A model generated the notes under the pieces. The model saw only the letters and a list, made by a program, of their open reading frames with translations. It searched no databases and had not been told where the DNA came from. From the IMG/VR virus record IMGVR_UViG_3300006921_000001: DNA of 31,134 bases. The stretch is one strand, 5' to 3'. Within the stretch, counting starts at the first letter, position 1. Each line of letters begins with the position of its first letter. Shown here piece after piece: positions 1 to 11,153 of the stretch. A program made the position numbers and the translations under genes. Source of the DNA: an uncultured virus (IMG/VR IMGVR_UViG_3300006921_000001). Taxonomy: Duplodnaviria > Heunggongvirae > Uroviricota > Caudoviricetes.

Positions 1-206
1 CTTCCTAGCACTATTCCCTCGTCGTAAAAGTTGGGATTTAATAGCACTAAGTCGCTATCATTGAAACGGGGATGAAACTCATAAAGGTTTCTACCGCCCA
101 AAGGTTTTAACTTCATAATCTGTAGTATTCTATCCAAGATATAGTCATATGTAATATCGTCGGATAGGTGTCCTAACCCTAGTTCTTCTAAATCTTCATT
201 TTCCAT
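1..206 (-). CDS. hypothetical protein, runs off the left edge (MENEDLEELGLGHLSDD...)
   Basis: Read by hand: ATG at 206 preceded by GGAG, open to position 1; overlaps the end of 196..753. Confidence 0.7.
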   Translation of the reverse strand, partial: MENEDLEELGLGHLSDDITYDYILDRILQIMKLKPLGGRNLYEFHPRFNDSDLVLLNPNFYDEGIVLG

Positions 207-753
207 ATATTTTCTCCCTAAATAATTGGTCGGGCGTTGGAAACCATTCAGGTCGCCCATTACGCCAAGTAGCAAATCGCCACTTATCTATTCTGTAATA
301 TTCCTTATATGCTTCTATAGTACATGGGAATAATTCTTCATCCAACAAATGTGGATAAATGTCTTTTTTAATTGCTCTAGCGAAAGGAGTAAGACCTTCG
401 TTATCAAACTCAGCATTTTGCAGCCATTTTGATACATCTTTATCAATCTCTCGCATAAGACGTTCTACTTTGTGTTGTTTCTTATAACGACCTGTATATT
501 CGTCGCATAATGCCCAAGTATTATCCCACAACCATTGAAAGTTTTCTCTTGATTGTCTACCCCATACTGTAGATGGGTGAATAGCCATACCGCGTGAAAG
601 TTTCTTCCAAACAATTTTGTCCGCAGGAAATCCTAACTCATGTAAATTATGTGAAATCATTTGAAATCCCTCTGTTGGCATCTTGACTACGTGTTTATCA
701 CAACATAAACTAGCCGCTTGCATTGGGTCTTCATGTAAAAAGAATATATTCAT
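196..753 (-). CDS. pyrimidine-dimer DNA glycosylase (T4 endonuclease V/DenV-like) family protein
   Basis: MNIFxL-DP, DKHVVKM-E-Q, HP-x-x-W, EY-x-RY-K-HK, AY-x-YY and C-terminal W-x-x-x-RP-x-W motifs typical of this phage family. Confidence 0.75.
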   Translation of the reverse strand: MNIFFLHEDPMQAASLCCDKHVVKMPTEGFQMISHNLHELGFPADKIVWKKLSRGMAIHPSTVWGRQSRENFQWLWDNTWALCDEYTGRYKKQHKVERLMREIDKDVSKWLQNAEFDNEGLTPFARAIKKDIYPHLLDEELFPCTIEAYKEYYRIDKWRFATWRNGRPEWFPTPDQLFREKIYGK

Positions 754-3694: not shown

Positions 3695-3898
3695 TTAGCA
3701 CCCACCGACAATTGCCTGTGTGAGTACGATTTCGTTAACATCATTGAAGTTAACATTCGCAATTTCTTCGCGGCTGACTAGTTCGCCATCCACGTAAGCC
3801 CAATGCGTTGGGTGTTCAATAATTTGTTCAAGTGCGCCTTCTGCGCTCATCATAAGTTCCGTGTGTCCTGTCTCATTTAAAATTGTTACCTTTACCAT
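3695..3898 (-). CDS. ubiquitin-like (SAMP/ThiS/MoaD beta-grasp) protein ending IVGG-C
   Basis: 67 aa from ATG 3898 after AGGTGA; N-terminal VKVTIL strand, central VDG, EIVL...IVGG tail. Confidence 0.7.
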   Translation of the reverse strand: MVKVTILNETGHTELMMSAEGALEQIIEHPTHWAYVDGELVSREEIANVNFNDVNEIVLTQAIVGGC

Positions 3899-4020
3899 TT
3901 CTTTCACCTTGTTGTTTGGCCCTCTCGGGCAATTTATACTACGCTTAGGTGGTATATAACCATCACGCTGTATTGTATTTTAGACATTTTGATATACTTT
4001 TTTCTCATTCATTCTGTTCG

Positions 4021-4857: not shown

Positions 4858-5138
4858 AAATCTTCACTGTTCCTCTTTGCCACTAACCATAGAACACAAT
4901 ATCCTGCCAAGTCGAGAAATATATCCTCATCTTTTTCTATTGCATCATGTCCCATCGCCAATCTTGAAATCTTATCATCCATTCGGACTCGTATCAATTC
5001 CTCAGCACTTCCATTCGCAAATATCCCAACAGGGTTCAATGCTGAATCTCCATACTGTTCATTTTTCAGAACCAAAAGTTCTGTCAATTCTTTCATCACT
5101 TTCTTAATCTTCCTAGTTGTATCTTCTGTGTCTGTCAT
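4848..5138 (-). CDS. DUF1599 / nucleotide-modification-associated domain 1 (Nmad1)-like protein
   Basis: KN-x-x-YGDS, RMDDKISRL and DLAGY motifs; GGTGA upstream. Confidence 0.75.
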   Translation of the reverse strand: MTDTEDTTRKIKKVMKELTELLVLKNEQYGDSALNPVGIFANGSAEELIRVRMDDKISRLAMGHDAIEKDEDIFLDLAGYCVLWLVAKRNSEDLWD

Positions 5139-5179
5139 TTAATCACCAAATTGCATACCTATGTATATCTTTTCTTTTT

Positions 5180-5545
5180 CATTCTGCACAAGAAACCACT
5201 TTTCCTACACATTTTGCACACTATTCCTACGTGAGAAATCAATATGTGCAAGAAATCTGGATTTTCCAGTGCATTTTGTAACTATTCCTATTTTCCTACT
5301 TTTCCTATGGGGTCACACCCATATACACATATAGACCCATATATCTATAACAAAATGTAATAGATAAAATAGTGTGTGTGTAGTAGTAGGTAGGAATAGT
5401 AGGAATAGTAGGAATATTTACAATATGTAATAGATAATACTATTTTCTTGTTCATAATGATTTCCTACGCATAGGAAAAGTGAGAAGGTGTTGCATAATG
5501 TCAAAGAAAATGAGTGAGAATTTGAATTACCCCATTATGCAACAG
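5180..5545. repeat. iteron-like cluster of TAGGAA/TTCCTA direct and inverted repeats; candidate replication origin
   Basis: TAGGAATAG tandem at 5391-5416; reverse copies near 5200, 5221, 5282-5307 and 5461; ATGTAATAGATAA twice; 12-bp inverted repeat 5489-5500/5533-5544; no ORF. Confidence 0.55.
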
Positions 5546-6308
5546 AAAAAGGTAGTTATTAAATCATAATAACCATGTAATTATTGTAAATTTTTAAGCG
5601 TTAGTTTATATAACAACTAGGCACAATTTACAAATAAAAGGAATCTGTTTGTATGCGAGTTCTATTCATCGTGTCACTCGCATACCTATCTGACCCCCGC
5701 CCCGTATATAAACCGCGACGGCCCAAAAAGACATTTTCTATAGCGTATTTAAATACATCCATTGTAAATGCCTATCTAGATACAACCATATGGGTGTGGA
5801 AAGAAATTCCATCAATAACCCTTGCTGCGGTAAGCATGGCAGTAGCACTATAGACGCTTCATTAATTACACTAACAGTTAATTATTCATTGTCTACTTGT
5901 GCACTGCCTGCTACCATATGGTACAGATAAATAGTTTGACACTAATTACTCATCTTCGTCAAACATCTGTTACCCTCCTGTGGATTCTCCATTTTACTTA
6001 CGTGGAGAACCATATGGTTCGGTTTACGGTATACGGATGTATATGTATTCTGCTGTGCAGATATACTATTAAATCTGATACTCCGTATTCGATAAACCAA
6101 TGAACCTTGCTATTTCTTTCTCGCGCGGAATCCGGGGCCGGCAATAAATACATTTATTATGCCTTAACGAATGCTCCATTCTGTCCTTACTTTATGGACA
6201 AGAATGTCTCATTAGTACCATATGGTTGTTTTTGCTAGCGAGTAATAAAGGGAGGTGCAACGAACTAAAACGAAAATTTGTATAGTTTTTGCTTTCTTTA
6301 TTACGAGC

Positions 6309-6357
6309 AAAAAAATACCCCAGTCGGGTGGAAGGAGGGGTTTTACCCCCTCCCTCC
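6309..6357 (-). terminator. GC-rich hairpin followed by a T-run downstream of 6394..6852
   Basis: GGAGGGG 6334-6340 / CCCCTCC 6347-6353; A-run 6309-6315 reads as a T-run on the minus strand. Confidence 0.45.
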
Positions 6358-6393
6358 GAGGACATTTTGAGGCTTAAGCCTCGTCTTCATCTC

Positions 6394-6852
6394 TCATTGG
6401 ACATCGCCCTTGAGGAATGTGATAACGTCTTCTGCTGTACTAACGTCATTATCTGCCTTGATGAGGCGGTTAATTCTGTTAATACAAATCTCCTGCATCT
6501 TTGCTTCATCTCTAAGGGTGTTATCCCTCAATGTTAGAAGACGAAGCAGTAGATGAGCATCTCCGCGAATTGTCTGTTCTGCCTTGATAGATTCAGGATT
6601 ACCGGGTGTCTTACCACCGGGGCAAGCATTGTCAGTTCCTTGATATCGCTTTATGATTCCTGAAATCATCATCATTTCAGCCTTCTTTGCATTATCATCA
6701 CCTTCATTTCCACGGACTACGGAATCTTCAAGGAAGTCCTTAGTAGCAGTATCAGCGTCTTTCTCAGACCAGAATAACATAGCAAGCCATTTAGTGACTC
6801 GCTCCATCAATTTAGTCCATTTTTGTTCAGTTGTTGGTTTTGTTTCGACCAT
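6394..6852 (-). CDS. hypothetical protein embedded in the hairpin array
   Basis: 152-aa ORF; TTTAAGTA box 28 nt before ATG. Confidence 0.8.
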   Translation of the reverse strand: MVETKPTTEQKWTKLMERVTKWLAMLFWSEKDADTATKDFLEDSVVRGNEGDDNAKKAEMMMISGIIKRYQGTDNACPGGKTPGNPESIKAEQTIRGDAHLLLRLLTLRDNTLRDEAKMQEICINRINRLIKADNDVSTAEDVITFLKGDVQ

Positions 6853-6908
6853 ACTAAGTCATTTTTATAGGGTACTTAAACTTACCACAAAGTTTTCTTT
6901 TAAGTACC
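6853..6908 (-). promoter_or_regulatory. archaeal TATA-type promoter (TTTAAGTA, 6880-6873) inside a stem-loop arm
   Basis: Spacing fits a leaderless transcript; shares TATAGGGTA-y-TTAA and ACAAAGT with the copy at 9441-9495. Confidence 0.6.
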
Positions 6909-7275
6909 ATATGGTCCTCAACTTCAGTGGGACCAGAAATGGGGATAACGATACTAATACTAGGCCGCATCACCTCGTATTCACGACGTTTGATAAGTCG
7001 TATCGTACCATATGGTGACAAGGGAGCCCTAAAACGCGGTATTCACTACGTCAGAACATGCGGACATTAACTTGACTCTTTTCAGCGTTGTAAAAAACAT
7101 TTACTAACAGCAACAAAAAAAGCCGGCGTTAATGCCGTTTCTGTACCATATGGTTCGAGTTTGTATAACTTTGAGATACAAACGACTTTTGAATACATGG
7201 AAAAAGCGAACCTCAAAATTAAAAAAAGAAAAAATTGGTTTTTGTTAACGCGGAACCGTAAAACCGCGATGCAGG

Positions 7276-7446
7276 TCAATCTCTCAAAGAATCCCGTGAC
7301 TGATAGTCACCAGATTCAGTGATTGTTTGAACATGCCCACACTTATTGCATCGGATAACCGATTCTTGCGTCCATAACCTAGAATGGTGATGTATCGCTT
7401 TGTGTGTTTTTACTATTGTGTTATTGTTGTGCCTGCAATTGGTCAT
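7276..7446 (-). CDS. 56-aa zinc-finger-like protein (MTNCRH...RCNKCGHVQ...)
   Basis: Read by hand; CxH and CxxC; ATGA overlap with 7443..7616. Confidence 0.65.
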   Translation of the reverse strand: MTNCRHNNNTIVKTHKAIHHHSRLWTQESVIRCNKCGHVQTITESGDYQSRDSLRD

Positions 7447-7616
7447 TCGTTCAACTCCTTAAGTCGTTTCTCAACCTCTTCGGTTATTCGCCTTGTTGAG
7501 GCAATTAACTCGCTTTCGGAAGTGGAAGAAATACGTAAAGATTCAACAATGTAGTTTTGATACCTATCTTGCTTAATCTTTAAGACGAATTCAGGCCGAC
7601 GGAAGAATCTAAGCAT
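7443..7616 (-). CDS. 57-aa hypothetical protein (MLRFFRRPEFVLKIKQD...)
   Basis: Read by hand; TAATG and ATGA overlaps with both neighbours. Confidence 0.65.
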   Translation of the reverse strand: MLRFFRRPEFVLKIKQDRYQNYIVESLRISSTSESELIASTRRITEEVEKRLKELNE

Positions 7617-7945
7617 TACTGCCTACACTCCTTCGCCTGATTTGCCAGCCAATCTTGACGGCGTTGGTCATCAGTTCTCCAATCCCAATGTGAATAGGCA
7701 TCCTGAATCCACTTAGGATTCTCTTCAACCAATTCACGGAACTTATGACCGGCTCTTAGAGCCTTAAGTCGTTCCCTGCGCCAAATTGGGTTATCCCAAT
7801 TGTAGGCCTCTTTCTTAGAATTGTGTTCTGGAGCGATTCGCTTGAATCCCTTCACATACAATCCGTATTTTTTTCCATGTCGCTGTGTAAATGTATTACT
7901 CATGGCCCCAACCTCCGCAATTTTGGCAATCACCGTGGTCGGCAT
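7616..7945 (-). CDS. hypothetical basic Trp-rich protein
   Basis: ORF track; first gene of a coupled three-gene string. Confidence 0.75.
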   Translation of the reverse strand: MPTTVIAKIAEVGAMSNTFTQRHGKKYGLYVKGFKRIAPEHNSKKEAYNWDNPIWRRERLKALRAGHKFRELVEENPKWIQDAYSHWDWRTDDQRRQDWLANQAKECRQ

Positions 7946-8188
7946 TGTATTTCATTTCACATACTATACATTGTGTCATATTTGTTCACCTGCAAATTAA
8001 AAAAGGCGACTTTTTTGGTATCGCAGAAAGTCGTAACTGCGCCGATGGTCAAAATCGTGTTTCATCGGATTAATTTTAGCACCTATTACCGGATGCCTCG
8101 GATTTGGCTTTTTTAGGTCGTGAGAAGCCATTAACTCACGGGAAAAAGGCTTAAGCCTCTTCCTCATCGCGGACTATGATGATAATCA

Positions 8189-8824
8189 TCATTCATCCGC
8201 TCCAGTTTGCACTGAATCAGTAGATTCTTCCGCTGTGACCGTAAAGGTCATGTCGGAATTACCGTCCCAGATATTAGCACGGTATTTGCTCATTAGGTTC
8301 TGCTTCTCAGCATTAACCTTTAGAGCGACGAACTCTTCACGGGTTTCAATAACGCCGTAAGGGTTCTCAGAATCTCGTCCCGAAAGACGAAGAACCGATA
8401 GATGGTTCACATTCTGAATATCTGCTGATATGTCGAAGACATTTCCCCAGAACTCTTCAGCAACTGCAATGTGAGAATCAAGGTTTGCCTGAATCTCAGG
8501 GGATAATGTAGTTCCCCGTCCACGCTGGAAAGGCCATGAAAGAGAAATACCGTATCTCTCCTGCATTTGCCTACCAGTTAGGTGGATGCGCTGCTTTAGT
8601 TCACTGGATGGTGTTTCATCAGCCATTTGCTCCAACAACATACTTATCTGTTGTAGGTCGAAAGAAGCATAGTTCTTTTGCTTCTTCGTGCTGATGGCGT
8701 TTACCAGTGGGGTGGCCGCCTCATGCCATTCGTTCACCTTTGCGGAATAAACCGCAAAGTCATCTTCGCTCATTACTTTCGTGTTTTCACTCATTTTTGT
8801 CACACTCTTTGTTGTTTCTGCCAT
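8189..8824 (-). CDS. hypothetical protein embedded in the hairpin array
   Basis: 211-aa ORF; TTATATAT box upstream. Confidence 0.85.
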   Translation of the reverse strand: MAETTKSVTKMSENTKVMSEDDFAVYSAKVNEWHEAATPLVNAISTKKQKNYASFDLQQISMLLEQMADETPSSELKQRIHLTGRQMQERYGISLSWPFQRGRGTTLSPEIQANLDSHIAVAEEFWGNVFDISADIQNVNHLSVLRLSGRDSENPYGVIETREEFVALKVNAEKQNLMSKYRANIWDGNSDMTFTVTAEESTDSVQTGADE

Positions 8825-8841
8825 TCCTGACAGATATCTAT

Positions 8842-8895
8842 CGTATTTGAATCCTATATATAAGGTAGCCTAACAAAGTGGCTACCATATGGTAC
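8842..8895 (-). promoter_or_regulatory. promoter repeat copy (TTATATAT 8863-8856) abutting hairpin and ACCATATGGT
   Basis: Aligns over about 54 nt with 9441-9495. Confidence 0.65.
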
Positions 8896-8949
8896 GAGTT
8901 TAACGCTTTGAATTAAACGACTTTTGAAGAATGATAAAAGCGTACCTTG

Positions 8950-8972
8950 AAAAAAAAATAAAAAAAAAGAAA
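8950..8972 (-). terminator. oligo-T tract (archaeal-type terminator)
   Basis: Near-pure A-run on the plus strand; a similar tract lies at 7215-7234 after the 7276..7945 genes. Confidence 0.55.
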
Positions 8973-9440
8973 GGGAAGTCAGGAGCGTAAACAAAACAGT
9001 CGGTTAGCACGTTTTCGACATGAGTTATCGGCCGATTCTCATGCGATACTAAGGTGGAAACCCGTTCTGCAATACTCCATCATTCCCACGGGAAAAGAAA
9101 GGGTGCGGGTAGGACTACCTCGGGATAAGGGACACCTACAAAAGATTCACCGGATTACCCGTATACATTTGGTTTCGTATAGCGAAGGTTGGTTGACGGC
9201 TACTCTATCTTAACTCACCACAATAGGCTCTTACTCCTACTGTTGCTACTAACTACCCGCTAAGGTAATCCCGCTATTAAATCGGTCACGCTACGCCTTT
9301 TGATTATTATGACGTTATTGCACGATGGCAACACAAACGCATTTGGACACTATATCCAGTTGAGCAGGTGATTATCTTACCAATGCTTCACATCGGTTGT
9401 TCGATACACCACGGTCGGGTTTGCGGCCCGACATATCAGA
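8973..9440 (-). ncRNA. candidate structured non-coding RNA with a pseudoknot
   Basis: Lies between the promoter copy and the T-tract; no ORF of 60 aa or more; multiple stems and two crossing 8-bp helices. Confidence 0.55.
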
Positions 9441-9495
9441 CGTATTTGTATAGGGTATTTAAGGTAACTTTAACAAAGTAGTTACCATATGGTAC
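9441..9495 (-). promoter_or_regulatory. promoter repeat copy (TTAAATA on the minus strand) abutting hairpin and ACCATATGGT
   Basis: Paralog of 8842-8895. Confidence 0.6.
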
Positions 9496-10796
9496 TGGGG
9501 CAACTGGTAATTCTATGGTTGCGGTTTCTGCAGAAACCATTTTGCAAATTCCGGGAAACCACTCGGAATAATATAATTACCGTTGTCCCGTGTCCCCACC
9601 GTGGGGTTCACTTAAACTATCAGTTAAGTACCATATGGTTGGCGGTTTACGTGCGACGGAAACTTCTAGTTTACTTAAGTAATACTACTAGGATGAGGTG
9701 TTTTAATTGTTATTAAAGCCGAAGACGACGTTAATTGCTTAGGGTCGTTGCCGATAAACCAAATGACAAAACCTTACTTGTTTACGCGGCTGGGGGCTCA
9801 ACGTTCACCATAGATTCGTGATTTCACGACGAATCTTATGTTTCTCTTATTCACACCATATGGTACGAATCTATATAATTTTTTGATAATATCAAAAAAG
9901 GAGTAATAGTTGTCTTCGAGAAAATGAGACAAATATGTACGACTGATACTTTTTGTGAAAAATTACATAGATGAGTCCCTAGCGGCTTTCCGCGCCAGAG
10001 CGGGAGTACAGACCTCTAAACCCCTTTAGTAAAACACCTATAAATAAAAACATTTATTATCATAAATCTTTTACTAGGATTTATGTTAATGTAACGGTAA
10101 ACCATTACATTTACTAAACCCACAGTGCCTTAGAATTCTGTACCATATGGTGTGAACCTCATGAGGTTCTTATATCCCGCGAAACCCCTGCCCCTAACCC
10201 AAATAAATTACTTTTATTTCACTCAGCGTAGCCTCTCCCATGTAAAAACATTTAACATATACGTGTCTACGCCCTGCGAAAGAAAACTAACGCTGTCGCT
10301 ATTTCTTTGCACGTCCCATGTTATGATTCATACAACCATATGGTCCACATTTATGTTGGGACCCCGACGAGGCACAAAGGCTTATTGTTTTTAAATTTCA
10401 TTAGAGATGAAAAAGCATAACGCTGACGCTCAACAAGCGTACCATATGGTCCCATCCCCGAGGTATTCCCGTTGGCTTAACTTTCCTTGAATAAAGGAAT
10501 TTTTACCCGTTATTAAATACAATTAATAGTGCAAAAACCCTACCGTTTCATTTATCCTGCAGAAACTCAAGTACCATATGGGTGGCCTTGATTATAATTG
10601 AATTTATAATAAGGTGCCGCGTTAGGCAAACCCGCACCGCTGCGGTACTACAATGATTTAATTAAACACATTAGTACCATATGGTTCCGCTTTGCGTGAA
10701 CTTATTTTGTTATTTAAATAAAAAAACCAAATAACCCATTCAGATACCCAATCTTTATAGGGAACCCCAAAGTTTGCCTATTACAGAGGGAAAAAT

Positions 10797-11153
10797 ATGT
10801 ATACCTTCAATTTTAACTTAGGTGGCGGGCAAAATACACCCGATACACATGATTTTGAGCCAATAGTCAAGGCACTAAAAGACATTACAGAGGATTGGCA
10901 ATCATTCTATAACCTATACAAAAGATTCGCGCCACCACCAGAAGAAAACCAAGCCCAAATACAAGCATGGTTTAAAGAAATCAAACTTTCCCTCGACGCA
11001 ATCATAGAATTGTATAATAAAATACCTAATTCGCCAGATATGGACAATATACATGGCCCGGAAGAAGCAGAAAATATGCTAAATCAATTCGTTGAATTGA
11101 ATAAGTTATTTCAACCAGACAAACCAGATACAGATACAACAGGATATAATTAA
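10797..11153 (+). CDS. hypothetical acidic helical protein
   Basis: ORF track; TTTATA at 10754 and GAGG upstream. Confidence 0.7.
   Translation: MYTFNFNLGGGQNTPDTHDFEPIVKALKDITEDWQSFYNLYKRFAPPPEENQAQIQAWFKEIKLSLDAIIELYNKIPNSPDMDNIHGPEEAENMLNQFVELNKLFQPDKPDTDTTGYN

Follow-up and report, generated by a model that had tools for sequence, protein, structure and literature searches.

Organization of the Array

The sequence CCATATGG occurs 16 times at positions 5786–10684 of the window, which is the whole 31,134-base stretch of DNA analysed here, and nowhere else in it; this agrees with the original prediction in both number and position, and compares with 0.48 copies expected and a maximum of three in 100 dinucleotide shuffles. 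The copies start at 5786, 5914, 6010, 6218, 6907, 7008, 7146, 8885, 9485, 9631, 9856, 10143, 10336, 10442, 10574, and 10677; all 16 are preceded by A and 14 are followed by T. The region, which separates the two divergently oriented gene blocks of a marine virus of ~95 kb, is a single array of 15 cassettes linked by the exact 10-letter palindrome ACCATATGGT, with cassette sizes of 96–1739 nt, given as start-to-start spacing. Every module starts with GGT and ends with ACC, and since these ends usually close the terminal hairpin, each joint reads hairpin-ATAT-hairpin. The motif is also exact across the wider family: 270 exact copies were found in 31 loci, and one-mismatch copies are not enriched (0.39 per kb inside arrays versus 0.35 per kb outside). 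Such copies number three in the window, a background frequency, and none of them falls inside the array.

The ~15 modules of the window comprise three protein-gene units, one tiny acidic-peptide gene, and many non-coding units; no convincing reading frame is present in 12 of the 15 cassettes. The features (cassettes C1–C15) are as follows.

5785–10685, no strand assigned: whole array, (A)CCATATGG(T), 16 copies bounding 15 cassettes
5792–5915, minus: C1, 124 nt, non-coding, two hairpins; mini-cassette layout without the acidic micro-ORF
5920–6011, minus: C2, conserved mini-cassette, hairpin 1 at 6011–5982
within 5978–5967, minus: C2 Shine-Dalgarno sequence GGAGGG
5966–5946, minus: C2 micro-ORF, MFDEDE-stop; the cassette tail pairs back onto the Shine-Dalgarno-to-start region
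6016–6219, no strand assigned: C3, 204 nt, non-coding
6224–6908, minus: C4, protein unit; promoter arm with CTTTG-loop hairpin 6908–6871 and TATA-like box within 6872–6860
6852–6394, minus: C4 ORF, 152 aa, no family
6330–6357: GC hairpin at the C4 end, with a T-run (A-run on plus, 6309–6315)
6913–7009, no strand assigned: C5, 97 nt, non-coding; first hairpin 6913–6934, overall fold no better than shuffles
7014–7147, no strand assigned: C6, 134 nt, non-coding
7152–8886, minus: C7, protein unit; promoter arm with hairpin 8886–8864 and TATA-like box within 8865–8853
8824–8189 and 7945–7616, minus: C7 ORFs, 211 aa and 109 aa
7215–7238 (on plus): T-rich tract at the C7 end, with end hairpin 7212–7152
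8891–9486, minus: C8; promoter arm with hairpin 9486–9463 and TATA-like box within 9464–9454; no ORF >37 aa in its ~490-nt body
8949–8969 (on plus): two T9 runs at the C8 end, then end hairpin 8946–8891
9491–9857, plus: C9 (9491–9632) and C10 (9637–9857), non-coding
9862–10678, minus: C11–C15 (283, 189, 102, 128, and 99 nt), non-coding
9877–9901, no strand assigned: palindromic hairpin just inside C11, with a T6 run on each strand
10683–10720, plus: outer arm of the last motif, with CTTTG hairpin 10683–10701, then AT-rich TATA-like box 10710–10720

The last motif has its outer arm directed toward the block of plus-strand genes, the first of which is at 10797–11153. The 5′ domain of C3 (6016–6106) has a paralogue at 9637–9773 and a homologue in the related locus L002 (6281–6369), all three having the stem base GGTTTACG...CGATAAACC in common. 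In C1, a strain variant carries the compensatory changes A5854>G and T5892>C in a predicted pair. The hairpin at 9877–9901 lies where the plus-favored C9–C10 meet the minus-favored C11–C15 and is a possible two-way terminator.

Relatives and Host

The virus is probably magrovirus-like and archaea-infecting, as judged from flanking genes that it shares with relatives carrying a split family B polymerase, as in group B magroviruses; one related contig was placed in a Flavobacteriaceae MAG. The motif pair was found in 36 viral loci, 29 of which have 5–23 copies. In each of four related records (three are complete genomes) there is one cluster of 6–16 copies, plus one stray copy in one record; a reversed control pattern gave 0 matches. 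Among 185,579 prokaryote genomes the same pattern gave 39 matches, most of them two-copy or evenly spaced tandem repeats; one (L040) has the same spacing as the viral locus L027. None of 81 cassette proteins scored above the Pfam threshold. A manA RNA (Rfam RF01745) lies inside a cassette of a relative (L031, 4452–4720; 70 bits against a gathering score of 55.2), so structured RNAs are real cargo of the arrays, and the window cassettes matched neither manA nor any other Rfam family, even at E ≤ 10. Our searches of the literature for palindrome-joined cassette arrays found no describing paper, in line with the earlier remark that this is not a described element.

Putative Promoter Arms and the Mini-cassette

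Of 567 arms, 202 have CTTTG at 3–25 nt outward from the motif and 6 have CAAAG there. The spacing between palindrome and CTTTG is variable, commonly 4–9 nt and up to ~17. Arm-specific complementarity in 181 CTTTG arms was −2.30 kcal/mol, compared with −1.30 kcal/mol in partner-swapped arms (z = −13), and the bases flanking CTTTG covary (138/196 Watson-Crick pairs observed versus 83 expected). A TATA-like box lies directly 3′ of the hairpin in 73 arms, and a ribosome-binding site starts 26–28 nt beyond this box in 15 of the 24 complete arms. From these sequence features, the arms combining CTTTG hairpin and TATA-like box are putative promoters. Protein cassettes have a promoter arm at one end and a T-rich tract or GC hairpin at the other.

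The mini-cassette was found in 23 of 34 related contigs. Its first hairpin is closed at GGT...ACC in 29 of 31 copies, with differing stem sequences, and its ribosome-binding region is paired with the ACC-ending tail in 28 of 31; the conserved junction, unlike arm sequences, and alike fold that had been described for the array as a whole are borne out and are clearest here. The encoded peptide is acidic and of 6–11 residues, except for one copy with 18.

Folding of Cassettes and Arms

The seven left stems proposed originally are all complementary in the form given there, their duplex energies ranging from −7.4 to −23.9 kcal/mol, and nine of the ten proposed right spans fold with their first and last bases paired together, the exception being 9637–9773. 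When the 12 short inter-motif segments were compared with dinucleotide shuffles, eight had z ≤ −2 on at least one strand and four did not (range +0.46 to −6.2). The proposal that wobble pairs mostly favor the plus strand did not hold as a rule, since the better fold was on the plus strand for five of the 12 short cassettes and on the minus strand for seven. The strand preference amounts to as much as 18 kcal/mol: the plus-strand fold is better by 9–10 kcal/mol for C9 and C10, and the minus-strand fold by 11–18 kcal/mol for C11, C12, and C14.

In the wider family, 16% of the 286 right arms and 20% of the 283 left arms have, within 70 nt, a closed hairpin that reaches ≤ −5 kcal/mol with DNA parameters; the proportion at GGT sites is 11% inside arrays and 5% outside. 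Motif-adjacent hairpins have a median of −1.8 to −2.0 kcal/mol (DNA parameters). Arm hairpins in the wider family are thus frequent, but weak and non-universal.

Rearrangements at the Palindrome

Metagenome contigs of run X14, mostly 95–99% alike to the window and compared at 85% likeness, show single cassettes lost, relocated, or inverted at joints that share only 11–12 letters; the intervening sequence is not known for two of these joints, and at one the shorter side is just 30 letters long. Joint 7004→7143 (138 nt skipped, 12 letters shared, 255 letters on the shorter side) removes C6 exactly from motif to motif. Joint 10438→10571 skips 132 nt (11 letters shared), and joint 6214→10439 fuses the C3 end to the C14 start (12 letters shared); in this strain C14 is thus attached to the end of C3, and its place between C13 and C15 is empty. 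Position 9498 is joined to 9627 on the opposite strand, and the free end at 9639 matches, as reverse complement, the arm to the left of 9485; together these show inversion of C9, a 142-nt unit. Runs X15 and X17 have one common different sequence to the left of motif 9856, and in L002 a homologue of C6 occupies another array position (10340–10478).

Whole units thus vary exactly at the motif, by loss, relocation, and inversion in X14 and by relocation in L002, and these differences between strains and a relative demonstrate that the palindrome is the point of DNA exchange. The crossover cannot be placed within the 11–12 shared letters, so site-specific and short-homology exchange are indistinguishable at these joints. 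Among the four functions offered in the original prediction, that of sites flanking gene cassettes is the supported one; no support was found for replication, packaging, or ejection signals.

Interpretation of the Array

We favor, with a probability of roughly 0.6, an accessory region of self-contained modules joined by ACCATATGGT, the palindrome being the exchange point. This hyperplastic region would consist of three kinds of module joined end to end: protein-gene units with a CTTTG-hairpin promoter arm, TATA-like box, ribosome-binding site, and T-rich or GC-hairpin end; the conserved acidic-peptide mini-gene, with its ribosome-binding site paired with the module tail; and short non-coding folded units, the majority in the window. 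Because all joints are identical and self-complementary, any two could break and rejoin in either orientation, which would lead to excision, reinsertion, and inversion. At a little under even odds, exchange may be targeted by a putative dimeric nuclease or recombinase specific for the palindrome; the less probable mechanism, at about one chance in three in our judgment, is recombination through short homology or template switching, with the hairpins assisting.

It is rather unlikely that the region is primarily a processed RNA array, in which an endoribonuclease would cut polycistronic transcripts at single-stranded AUAU between two closed helices to give small RNAs and mRNAs with protected hairpin ends, DNA rearrangements being a side effect of the repeated joint; RNA processing may nevertheless operate as an additional layer. 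Such processing would account for modules that self-close from GGT to ACC, for the preference of single modules for one strand (by up to 18 kcal/mol), and for the convergence of C9–C10 (plus) and C11–C15 (minus) on a hairpin with T-runs on both strands. It is also consistent with the retention of C11 in L002 with its G-U pairs on the minus strand, with manA RNA as a cassette in a relative, and with the location of the coding and ribosome-binding features of the mini-cassette all on one strand; moreover, most short window cassettes have no promoter box of their own and would therefore need read-through and processing. However, the promoter-arm hairpin is upstream of the TATA-like box and so would not be transcribed by its own promoter, and CTTTG arms point outward on both sides of the joint whatever the gene direction (202 versus 6). 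Further, an RNase site would not require an exact 8–10-mer, and the 490-nt body of C8 folds no better than shuffles.

Use of the palindrome as a shared operator, a double-stranded site for a dimeric transcription regulator of all accessory-gene promoters, we consider unlikely. The hairpins would then be terminators or insulators, and modules would shuffle only by ordinary homologous recombination at the joints, as for PeSLs. The sequence is perfectly palindromic and, in most of the 73 promoter arms, precedes the TATA-like box by 22–26 nt; its cassettes, like those described for PeSLs (PMC2839356), consist of ORFan genes within a plastic region, and RadA-like and nuclease genes are described for magroviruses (PMC5434244). 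Yet a promoter-like arm is present on either side of only 4–5 of the 16 window copies, operators are normally degenerate whereas this 8-mer is all-or-none, and the variable palindrome-CTTTG spacing is easier to reconcile with a folded arm than with a rigid duplex site. The recombined joints, including the inversion of the 142-nt unit, share only 11–12 letters, a short identity for strand-exchange proteins.

An integron-like or IS200/IS605-like system, in which a tyrosine integrase or Y1 HUH transposase would recognize the hairpins and cut the conserved core, is highly improbable. It would fit arrays in which the core is short and conserved and the folded arms vary, the loss, gain, and reordering of cassettes at that core, and the arm-specific complementarity. 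Against it, Phage_integrase, Resolvase, and Y1_Tnp had no match in the four related records (three complete), where controls matched; the palindrome is flanked by two hairpins, unlike the single hairpin of attC; a promoter of their own is present in many cassettes; and inversions occur. The attC-like recombination sites suggested originally, and with them an attC/integron system, were rejected on the lack of a tyrosine integrase in these records, the twin hairpins, and the cassettes' own promoters. The absence of integrase, resolvase, and Y1 matches is weak evidence, since family matches are lacking for most proteins of these viruses; a protein able to act on the palindrome was not found.

Comparison with Known Systems

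The mini-cassette resembles leader micro-ORFs of the mgtL type, mgtL being a leader micro-ORF that senses translation, in that it likewise has a very short ORF with consecutive Asp/Glu residues right after the start. As in translation-sensing leaders, this ORF is enclosed in an RNA helix by which its own ribosome-binding site is masked. Intrinsic ribosome destabilization by N-terminal acidic runs has been described (PMC12673854; 10.1101/2022.01.27.477990). In contrast to mgtL-type leaders, no downstream gene is evidently controlled by the mini-cassette, the next element usually being another cassette's promoter arm; its host is probably an archaeon and its function is putative. The manA RNA is cargo of the L031 cassette and is unmatched by any cassette of the window.

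With DNA shufflons and invertases (Rci/sfx, Hin/Gin type) the array shares short repeated sites and inversion and reordering within a locus. Those systems rely on a tyrosine or serine recombinase of their own, act at longer, asymmetric sites, and vary the coding end of one protein; the array yielded no recombinase match, and its segments are independent genes and RNA-like units. Integron attC arrays are similar in their tandem cassettes, a site fold conserved over sequence, and a short core at the boundary. However, attC is a single imperfect hairpin with R''/R' boxes, while each site here has two hairpins and a palindrome; no integrase was found, and the cassettes, often with a promoter of their own, are present in both orientations.

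Among known systems, the array most resembles the PeSL (promoter-early stem-loop) cassettes, which are mobile regulatory elements of T4-type phages (Arbiol et al., 2010; PMC2839356). PeSLs are likewise small regulatory joints with a promoter and stem-loop, are concentrated in a hyperplastic region rich in ORFan genes, and mark joints at which related viruses differ by module insertion, deletion, or replacement (PMC2839356). As described there, they have a sigma-70 promoter, one G/C-rich stem-loop, and no invariant core (PMC2839356). The array, in contrast, has an exact 10-letter palindrome between two hairpins and TATA-like promoter boxes; many of its modules are non-coding or carry a micro-ORF, its exchanged joints share only 11–12 letters, and inversion is seen.

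The Motif Is Confined to One Array in the Window

CCATATGG has 16 copies within 5786–10684 and none in the rest of the 31-kb window. For the window 0.48 copies would be expected, and 100 shuffles gave at most three; the copy count of the original prediction therefore stands. The base 5′ of the motif is A in all 16 copies and the base 3′ is T in 14, and the left flank in the window virus is mostly GTA (9/16). Three one-mismatch copies are present in the window, all beyond the array and at background level. In 31 loci, 270 copies are exact, and one-mismatch copies are no commoner inside arrays (0.39 per kb) than outside (0.35 per kb), so the motif is all-or-none. The array lies between a minus-strand gene block ending at 5138 and a plus-strand block beginning at 10797, has a G+C content of 0.41–0.43 (~0.35 in its surroundings), and contains three ORFs taken as genes (109–211 aa), all on the minus strand.

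A restriction-avoidance reading of the motif was rejected, since CATATG shows no avoidance beyond the array (7 found, 9.2 expected). Outside 5700–10750, GGTACC and CCATGG are absent (4.8 and 4.1 expected) and TTATAA and TATATA reach about half their expected numbers; these missing or rare palindromes may reflect restriction-site avoidance.

The region 5140–5560, which separates the minus-strand genes from the array, has ~9–10 copies of the words TTCCTAC and GTAGGAA, densely arranged in direct and inverted orientation round AT-rich sequence and including three tandem copies of GTAGGAATA at 5390–5425. The region is 69% conserved with 5370–5968 of the related locus L002, and resembles a replication origin of the iteron type or a stretch bound by protein at several sites. 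The best conserved array neighbor is a 70-aa protein (3695–3907, minus strand; 74–91% identity among the eight matches listed of 14 loci), which ends in IVGGC and has no Pfam match; its size and C-terminal Gly-Gly are reminiscent of the ubiquitin-like ThiS/MoaD/SAMP proteins. A 185-aa protein (196–753, minus strand) matches phrog_624 “DNA binding protein” (E = 6e-46), is found near arrays in ten loci, and gives a weak match, below the cut-off, to Pfam Pyr_excise (T4 endonuclease V type). Adjacent tRNA genes for Lys-UUU, Glu-UUC, and Leu-UAA are located at 2343–2596 on the minus strand, and relatives carry one or two tRNAs a few kb from their arrays.

The Array Family and Its Viruses

Scanning IMG/VR for two 10-mers spaced 86–116 nt apart recovered 36 loci (34 distinct contigs), many on contigs of ~60–99 kb. 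At 29 of the 36, the 8-mer core is present in 5–23 copies within 12 kb; L019/L025 and L033 have the two seed copies and no more. An 18-nt tandem repeat containing the 10-mer in L014 (5984–6140) is probably unrelated to the cassette arrays. Four related virus records, three of them complete, contain 8, 9, 17, and 6 copies, in each case in a single cluster of 2.4–4.6 kb bar one stray copy, and the reversed control pattern gave no match in these four. The identical pattern gave 39 matches in 185,579 prokaryote genomes, mostly two-copy or evenly spaced tandem repeats. The locus L040 is a 43-kb contig binned in an Altibacter (Flavobacteriaceae) MAG, with motif spacing equal to that of the viral locus L027; it either is viral and mis-binned or hints that the host may not be archaeal.

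Almost nothing among the window proteins is recognized by PHROGs or Pfam. Four array-flanking genes of the window (96, 70, 185, and 118 aa) recur beside arrays in 10–16 loci at 27–91% identity, and the window flanking genes are 31–78% identical to those at the loci of three related genomes, G002, G004, and G005. Direct terminal repeats are present in G002 (96 kb) and G005 (99 kb), and the G004 record (96 kb) is designated linear; in each of the three, family B DNA polymerase is encoded in two pieces (~570 and ~305 aa) with stop codons between. Philosof et al. (PMC5434244) describe magroviruses, which are viruses of Poseidoniales, as having terminally redundant genomes of ~65–100 kb and a family B DNA polymerase, with a split polymerase unique to group B, whose terminally redundant genomes are ~100 kb. 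Because the flanking genes are shared with relatives whose polymerase is split, the window virus is probably magrovirus-like, with an archaeal host. No replication gene was found within the window, and Pfam searches of the relatives for PCNA (PCNA_N) and chaperonin (Cpn60_TCP1) returned nothing. Among GenBank phages, there was no DNA match to 5200–10800 and no match to a neighboring 711-aa protein, and a 548-aa protein gave partial cyanophage matches only. A related-locus search with the 711-aa protein returned the same virus only, and a homologous-protein search for closer relatives found five unnamed proteins; the nearest record, G001, is a fragment of 8.3 kb that lacks the motif.

Anatomy of Joints and Arms

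CTTTG lies 3–25 nt outward of the motif in 202 of 567 arms (the sequences flanking the motif), and CAAAG in six. The bases flanking CTTTG covary, forming Watson-Crick pairs in 138 of 196 cases compared with 83 expected (A..T in 95 arms, G..C in 38), and the halves of an arm pair better with each other (−2.30 kcal/mol) than with swapped partners (−1.30 kcal/mol; z = −13 for 181 arms, a figure inflated by related copies). The arm hairpins are short and weak: 16–20% of all arms close at ≤ −5 kcal/mol (DNA parameters, within 70 nt), the figures for GGT sites used as controls being 11% within arrays and 5% beyond them, and stems of ≥6 bp in an exact-stem test are modestly enriched (17–18% of arms, against 7% and 3% of controls). 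In 127 of 184 arms, the strand bearing CTTTG gives a more stable fold than the opposite strand; G-T and A-C oppositions number 8 and 4 (p = 0.39).

The original prediction placed a stem on either side of the motif at most window copies. All seven of its left stems are complementary as written, and in nine of its ten right spans the two ends pair with one another on folding, but in the tenth they do not. Measured against dinucleotide shuffles, eight of 12 short inter-motif segments fold at z ≤ −2 on at least one strand, and the other four do not.

Promoter arms, which carry a TATA-like box after the hairpin (n = 73), read outward as hairpin, ACC, TATA-like box, GGTGA-type ribosome-binding site, and start codon, with the ribosome-binding site starting 26–28 nt past the box in 15 of 24 complete examples; the window has three on the minus strand plus the outer arm. 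Such a joint holds a predicted promoter, not of the sigma-70 type, facing the downstream gene. End arms lead outward from the hairpin to an A-run (a T-run in the gene sense) or a CCCCGAAGGG hairpin, and protein cassettes end in T-runs or GC hairpins that are putative terminators. In the locus L031, each inter-motif segment contains one small gene, all on a single strand.

A Mini-Cassette with an Acidic Micro-ORF

The most widely shared array module is a single family of 90–130-nt units, the mini-cassette, which is matched by the seed pattern of the motif-pair scan and is present in 23 of 34 contigs at 1–3 copies each; the window copy is C2 (cassettes C1–C15 are numbered in window order), on the minus strand. 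Its layout is motif, hairpin 1, a strong ribosome-binding site GGAGG(G/T), 7–11 nt, ATG or GTG, an ORF of 6–11 codons (18 in one outlying copy), and a tail into the next motif. The encoded peptide is M-F-(F)-D/E-rich, and reads MFDEDE in the window (5966–5946). In a set of 31 distinct ORFs, Asp accounts for 41% of the residues beyond the start, Glu for 25%, and Phe for 11%; 21 begin with ATG and 10 with GTG, and 17 terminate in TGA and 14 in TAA. Over the final four codons, conservation falls on positions 1 and 2 (0.2–0.9 bit) and position 3 varies freely (~1.5 bit), a signature of coding sequence.

Of 31 copies, 29 close hairpin 1 at GGT...ACC, and in 28 the region from ribosome-binding site to start pairs with the tail. 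Since MAFFT alignments left the variable stems out of register, with RNAalifold instead pairing both flanking palindromes, the fold was tested by per-sequence folding with partner-swap controls, in which own tails gave −11.7 kcal/mol versus −9.35 ± 0.41 kcal/mol for swapped tails. The mini-cassette is the clearest instance of the “unrelated arms, conserved fold” proposed in the original prediction, because stem sequences differ between subfamilies and the fold is kept. It has no TATA-like box, and its usual place is between an end arm and the promoter arm of the next cassette. The exact motif GGAGG, 5–12 nt, MFDDDE-stop was absent from 185,579 prokaryote genomes. N-terminal acidic runs are known to destabilize translating ribosomes (PMC12673854; 10.1101/2022.01.27.477990). 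The mini-cassette provides a well-defined case on which control dependent on the peptide or the ribosome could be tested in uncultured archaea.

In the sequencing run X14, which contains a near-identical strain, a contig departs from the window at 5943, inside the mini-cassette, and encodes on the minus strand another micro-ORF ending in F-D-E-E-M-E-stop. This divergence suggests exchange between mini-cassette paralogs within the conserved tail.

Cargo of the Window Cassettes

Cassettes and features of the window array
C4, C7, and C8: minus strand; units with a promoter arm
C8: minus strand; promoter arm, ~490 nt without an ORF >37 aa, two T9 runs
Remaining twelve cassettes: 92–283 nt; no convincing ORF
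C9 and C10: fold 9–10 kcal/mol better on the plus strand
C6, C11, C12, and C14: fold 9–18 kcal/mol better on the minus strand
9877–9901: palindromic hairpin; T6 runs in both strands; meeting point of plus-favored and minus-favored cassettes

C11 is conserved in L002, with G-U pairs kept on the minus strand, and C3 and C10 have a domain in common with that locus. The body of C8 was considered as a large structured RNA and rejected, being no better folded than shuffles (z = −0.59 on minus, +0.55 on plus). Pfam gave no match at threshold for any of the 81 cargo proteins encoded in 27 loci plus the window. At gathering score, Rfam recognized three tRNAs alone in the window, beyond the array, and no tRNA gene was found within it. 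At E ≤ 10, eight Rfam matches fall within 5100–11000: seven are far below gathering scores and outside the non-coding cassettes, and the eighth, NEAT1_2 at 6393–6497 (plus strand; 19.3 bits, gathering score 60), overlaps C4. In L031, a manA RNA lies inside a cassette, 3′ of a promoter arm.

DNA Exchange at the Palindrome

The X14 contigs are mostly 95–99% alike to the window, contigs being accepted at 85% likeness. In one of 2.4 kb, 6611–7004 is joined to 7143–8762, with C6 absent motif to motif and 12 letters common at the joint. A second joint (10438→10571, 11 letters common) removes C14 and a third (6214→10439, 12 letters common) places the start of C14 after C3, which taken together indicate relocation of this 132-nt cassette. 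Inversion of C9 is shown by the joining of 9498 and 9627 on opposite strands, together with a loose end after 9639 that, once reverse-complemented, is identical to the arm on the left of 9485. For two of the joints the sequence between is not known, and the shorter side of one is just 30 letters long; with assembly words of 31 letters, chimeras arising at a repeat of 12 nt would be improbable.

Two further runs, X15 and X17, have one common, differing sequence left of the motif at 9856, and a contig of the locus L017 (99.8% identical) starts 8 nt before that motif. In L002, a homolog of C6 (88% identical) is located near the opposite array end. Relatives compared for gain or loss of units at the motif, as the original prediction had proposed, thus differ by cassette deletion, relocation, and inversion at joints (X14, and the moved C6 in L002). 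Exchange maps to the standard connector of the modules. Within C1, the X14 strain carries A5854>G and T5892>C, changes at both partners of a single predicted pair; four further changes in the same stem are not simply compensatory.

One possibility, with a probability of roughly 0.3, is that archaeal viruses of the open ocean have a dedicated palindrome-specific cut-and-rejoin system outside the known recombinase families. Promoter-gene units, small structured RNAs, and a conserved acidic micro-peptide gene would be standard interchangeable parts with GGT...ACC hairpin ends, excised, reinserted, or flipped at ACCATATGGT, in a manner distinct from integrons, shufflons, and PeSLs. Because all joints are identical and self-complementary, any two could be broken and rejoined in either orientation, which would account for deletion, relocation, and inversion alike.

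That a palindrome-specific protein targets the exchange has a little under even odds in our estimation. The exactness of the 8-mer, the very short sequence common at recombined joints, the inversion of a 142-nt unit, and the presence of the motif at promoterless joints (11–12 of 16 in the window) all argue for such a protein. However, no enzyme of a familiar type was matched: tyrosine integrase (PF00589) gave no matches in four related records, three of them complete (controls matched 14/14), and the window ORFs scanned included none; Y1 HUH transposase (PF01797) and resolvase were likewise absent from the four records. General recombination genes, known in magroviruses (PMC5434244), also count against a dedicated protein. 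Exchange by short homology or template switching is a possibility to which we assign clearly less than even odds, and other mechanisms take up the remainder. RNA processing at AUAU between closed helices is possible as a second function, and the joint could double as a processing site.

Magroviruses rank with the most abundant of all surface-ocean viruses, and we know of no function assigned to their accessory genes. A standard connector offers an explanation for the rapid swapping of host-takeover genes by array-bearing viruses, and ACCATATGGT with its arms is a sequence handle by which accessory genes and small RNAs may be found and delimited in metagenomes. If a dedicated enzyme does act on the palindrome, it would add a novel type to the systems of site-specific DNA rearrangement; the cut-and-rejoin reading, if true, would make the arrays a natural parts-assembly system.

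Comparison with Known Systems

Integrons have a single attC hairpin per cassette, and their promoterless cassettes are read from one Pc promoter. The idea of attC-like sites in the original prediction was not borne out: no integrase was matched in the four related records or among the window ORFs scanned, twin hairpins surround the palindrome, and cassettes have promoter arms of their own, in either orientation. Membership of the integrons, of the IS200/IS605 (or REP-RAYT) elements, and of the invertase systems was rejected in each case on the defining enzyme, which had no match in the four related records. We found no description of the array in the literature searched, where the 10-mer and 8-mer yield cloning primers and unrelated work, and the main text of two magrovirus papers makes no mention of palindrome, promoter, TATA, or hairpin.

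The closest known system is that of the PeSL cassettes of T4-type phages (PMC2839356). Both have joints with regulatory elements, predicted ones in the array, in a plastic ORFan region and modular shuffling, and differences between relatives of the window virus fall at the joints of such a region. In contrast to PeSLs, the array has an exact palindrome, twin hairpins, predicted TATA-like promoters, and a cargo of RNAs and micro-ORFs.
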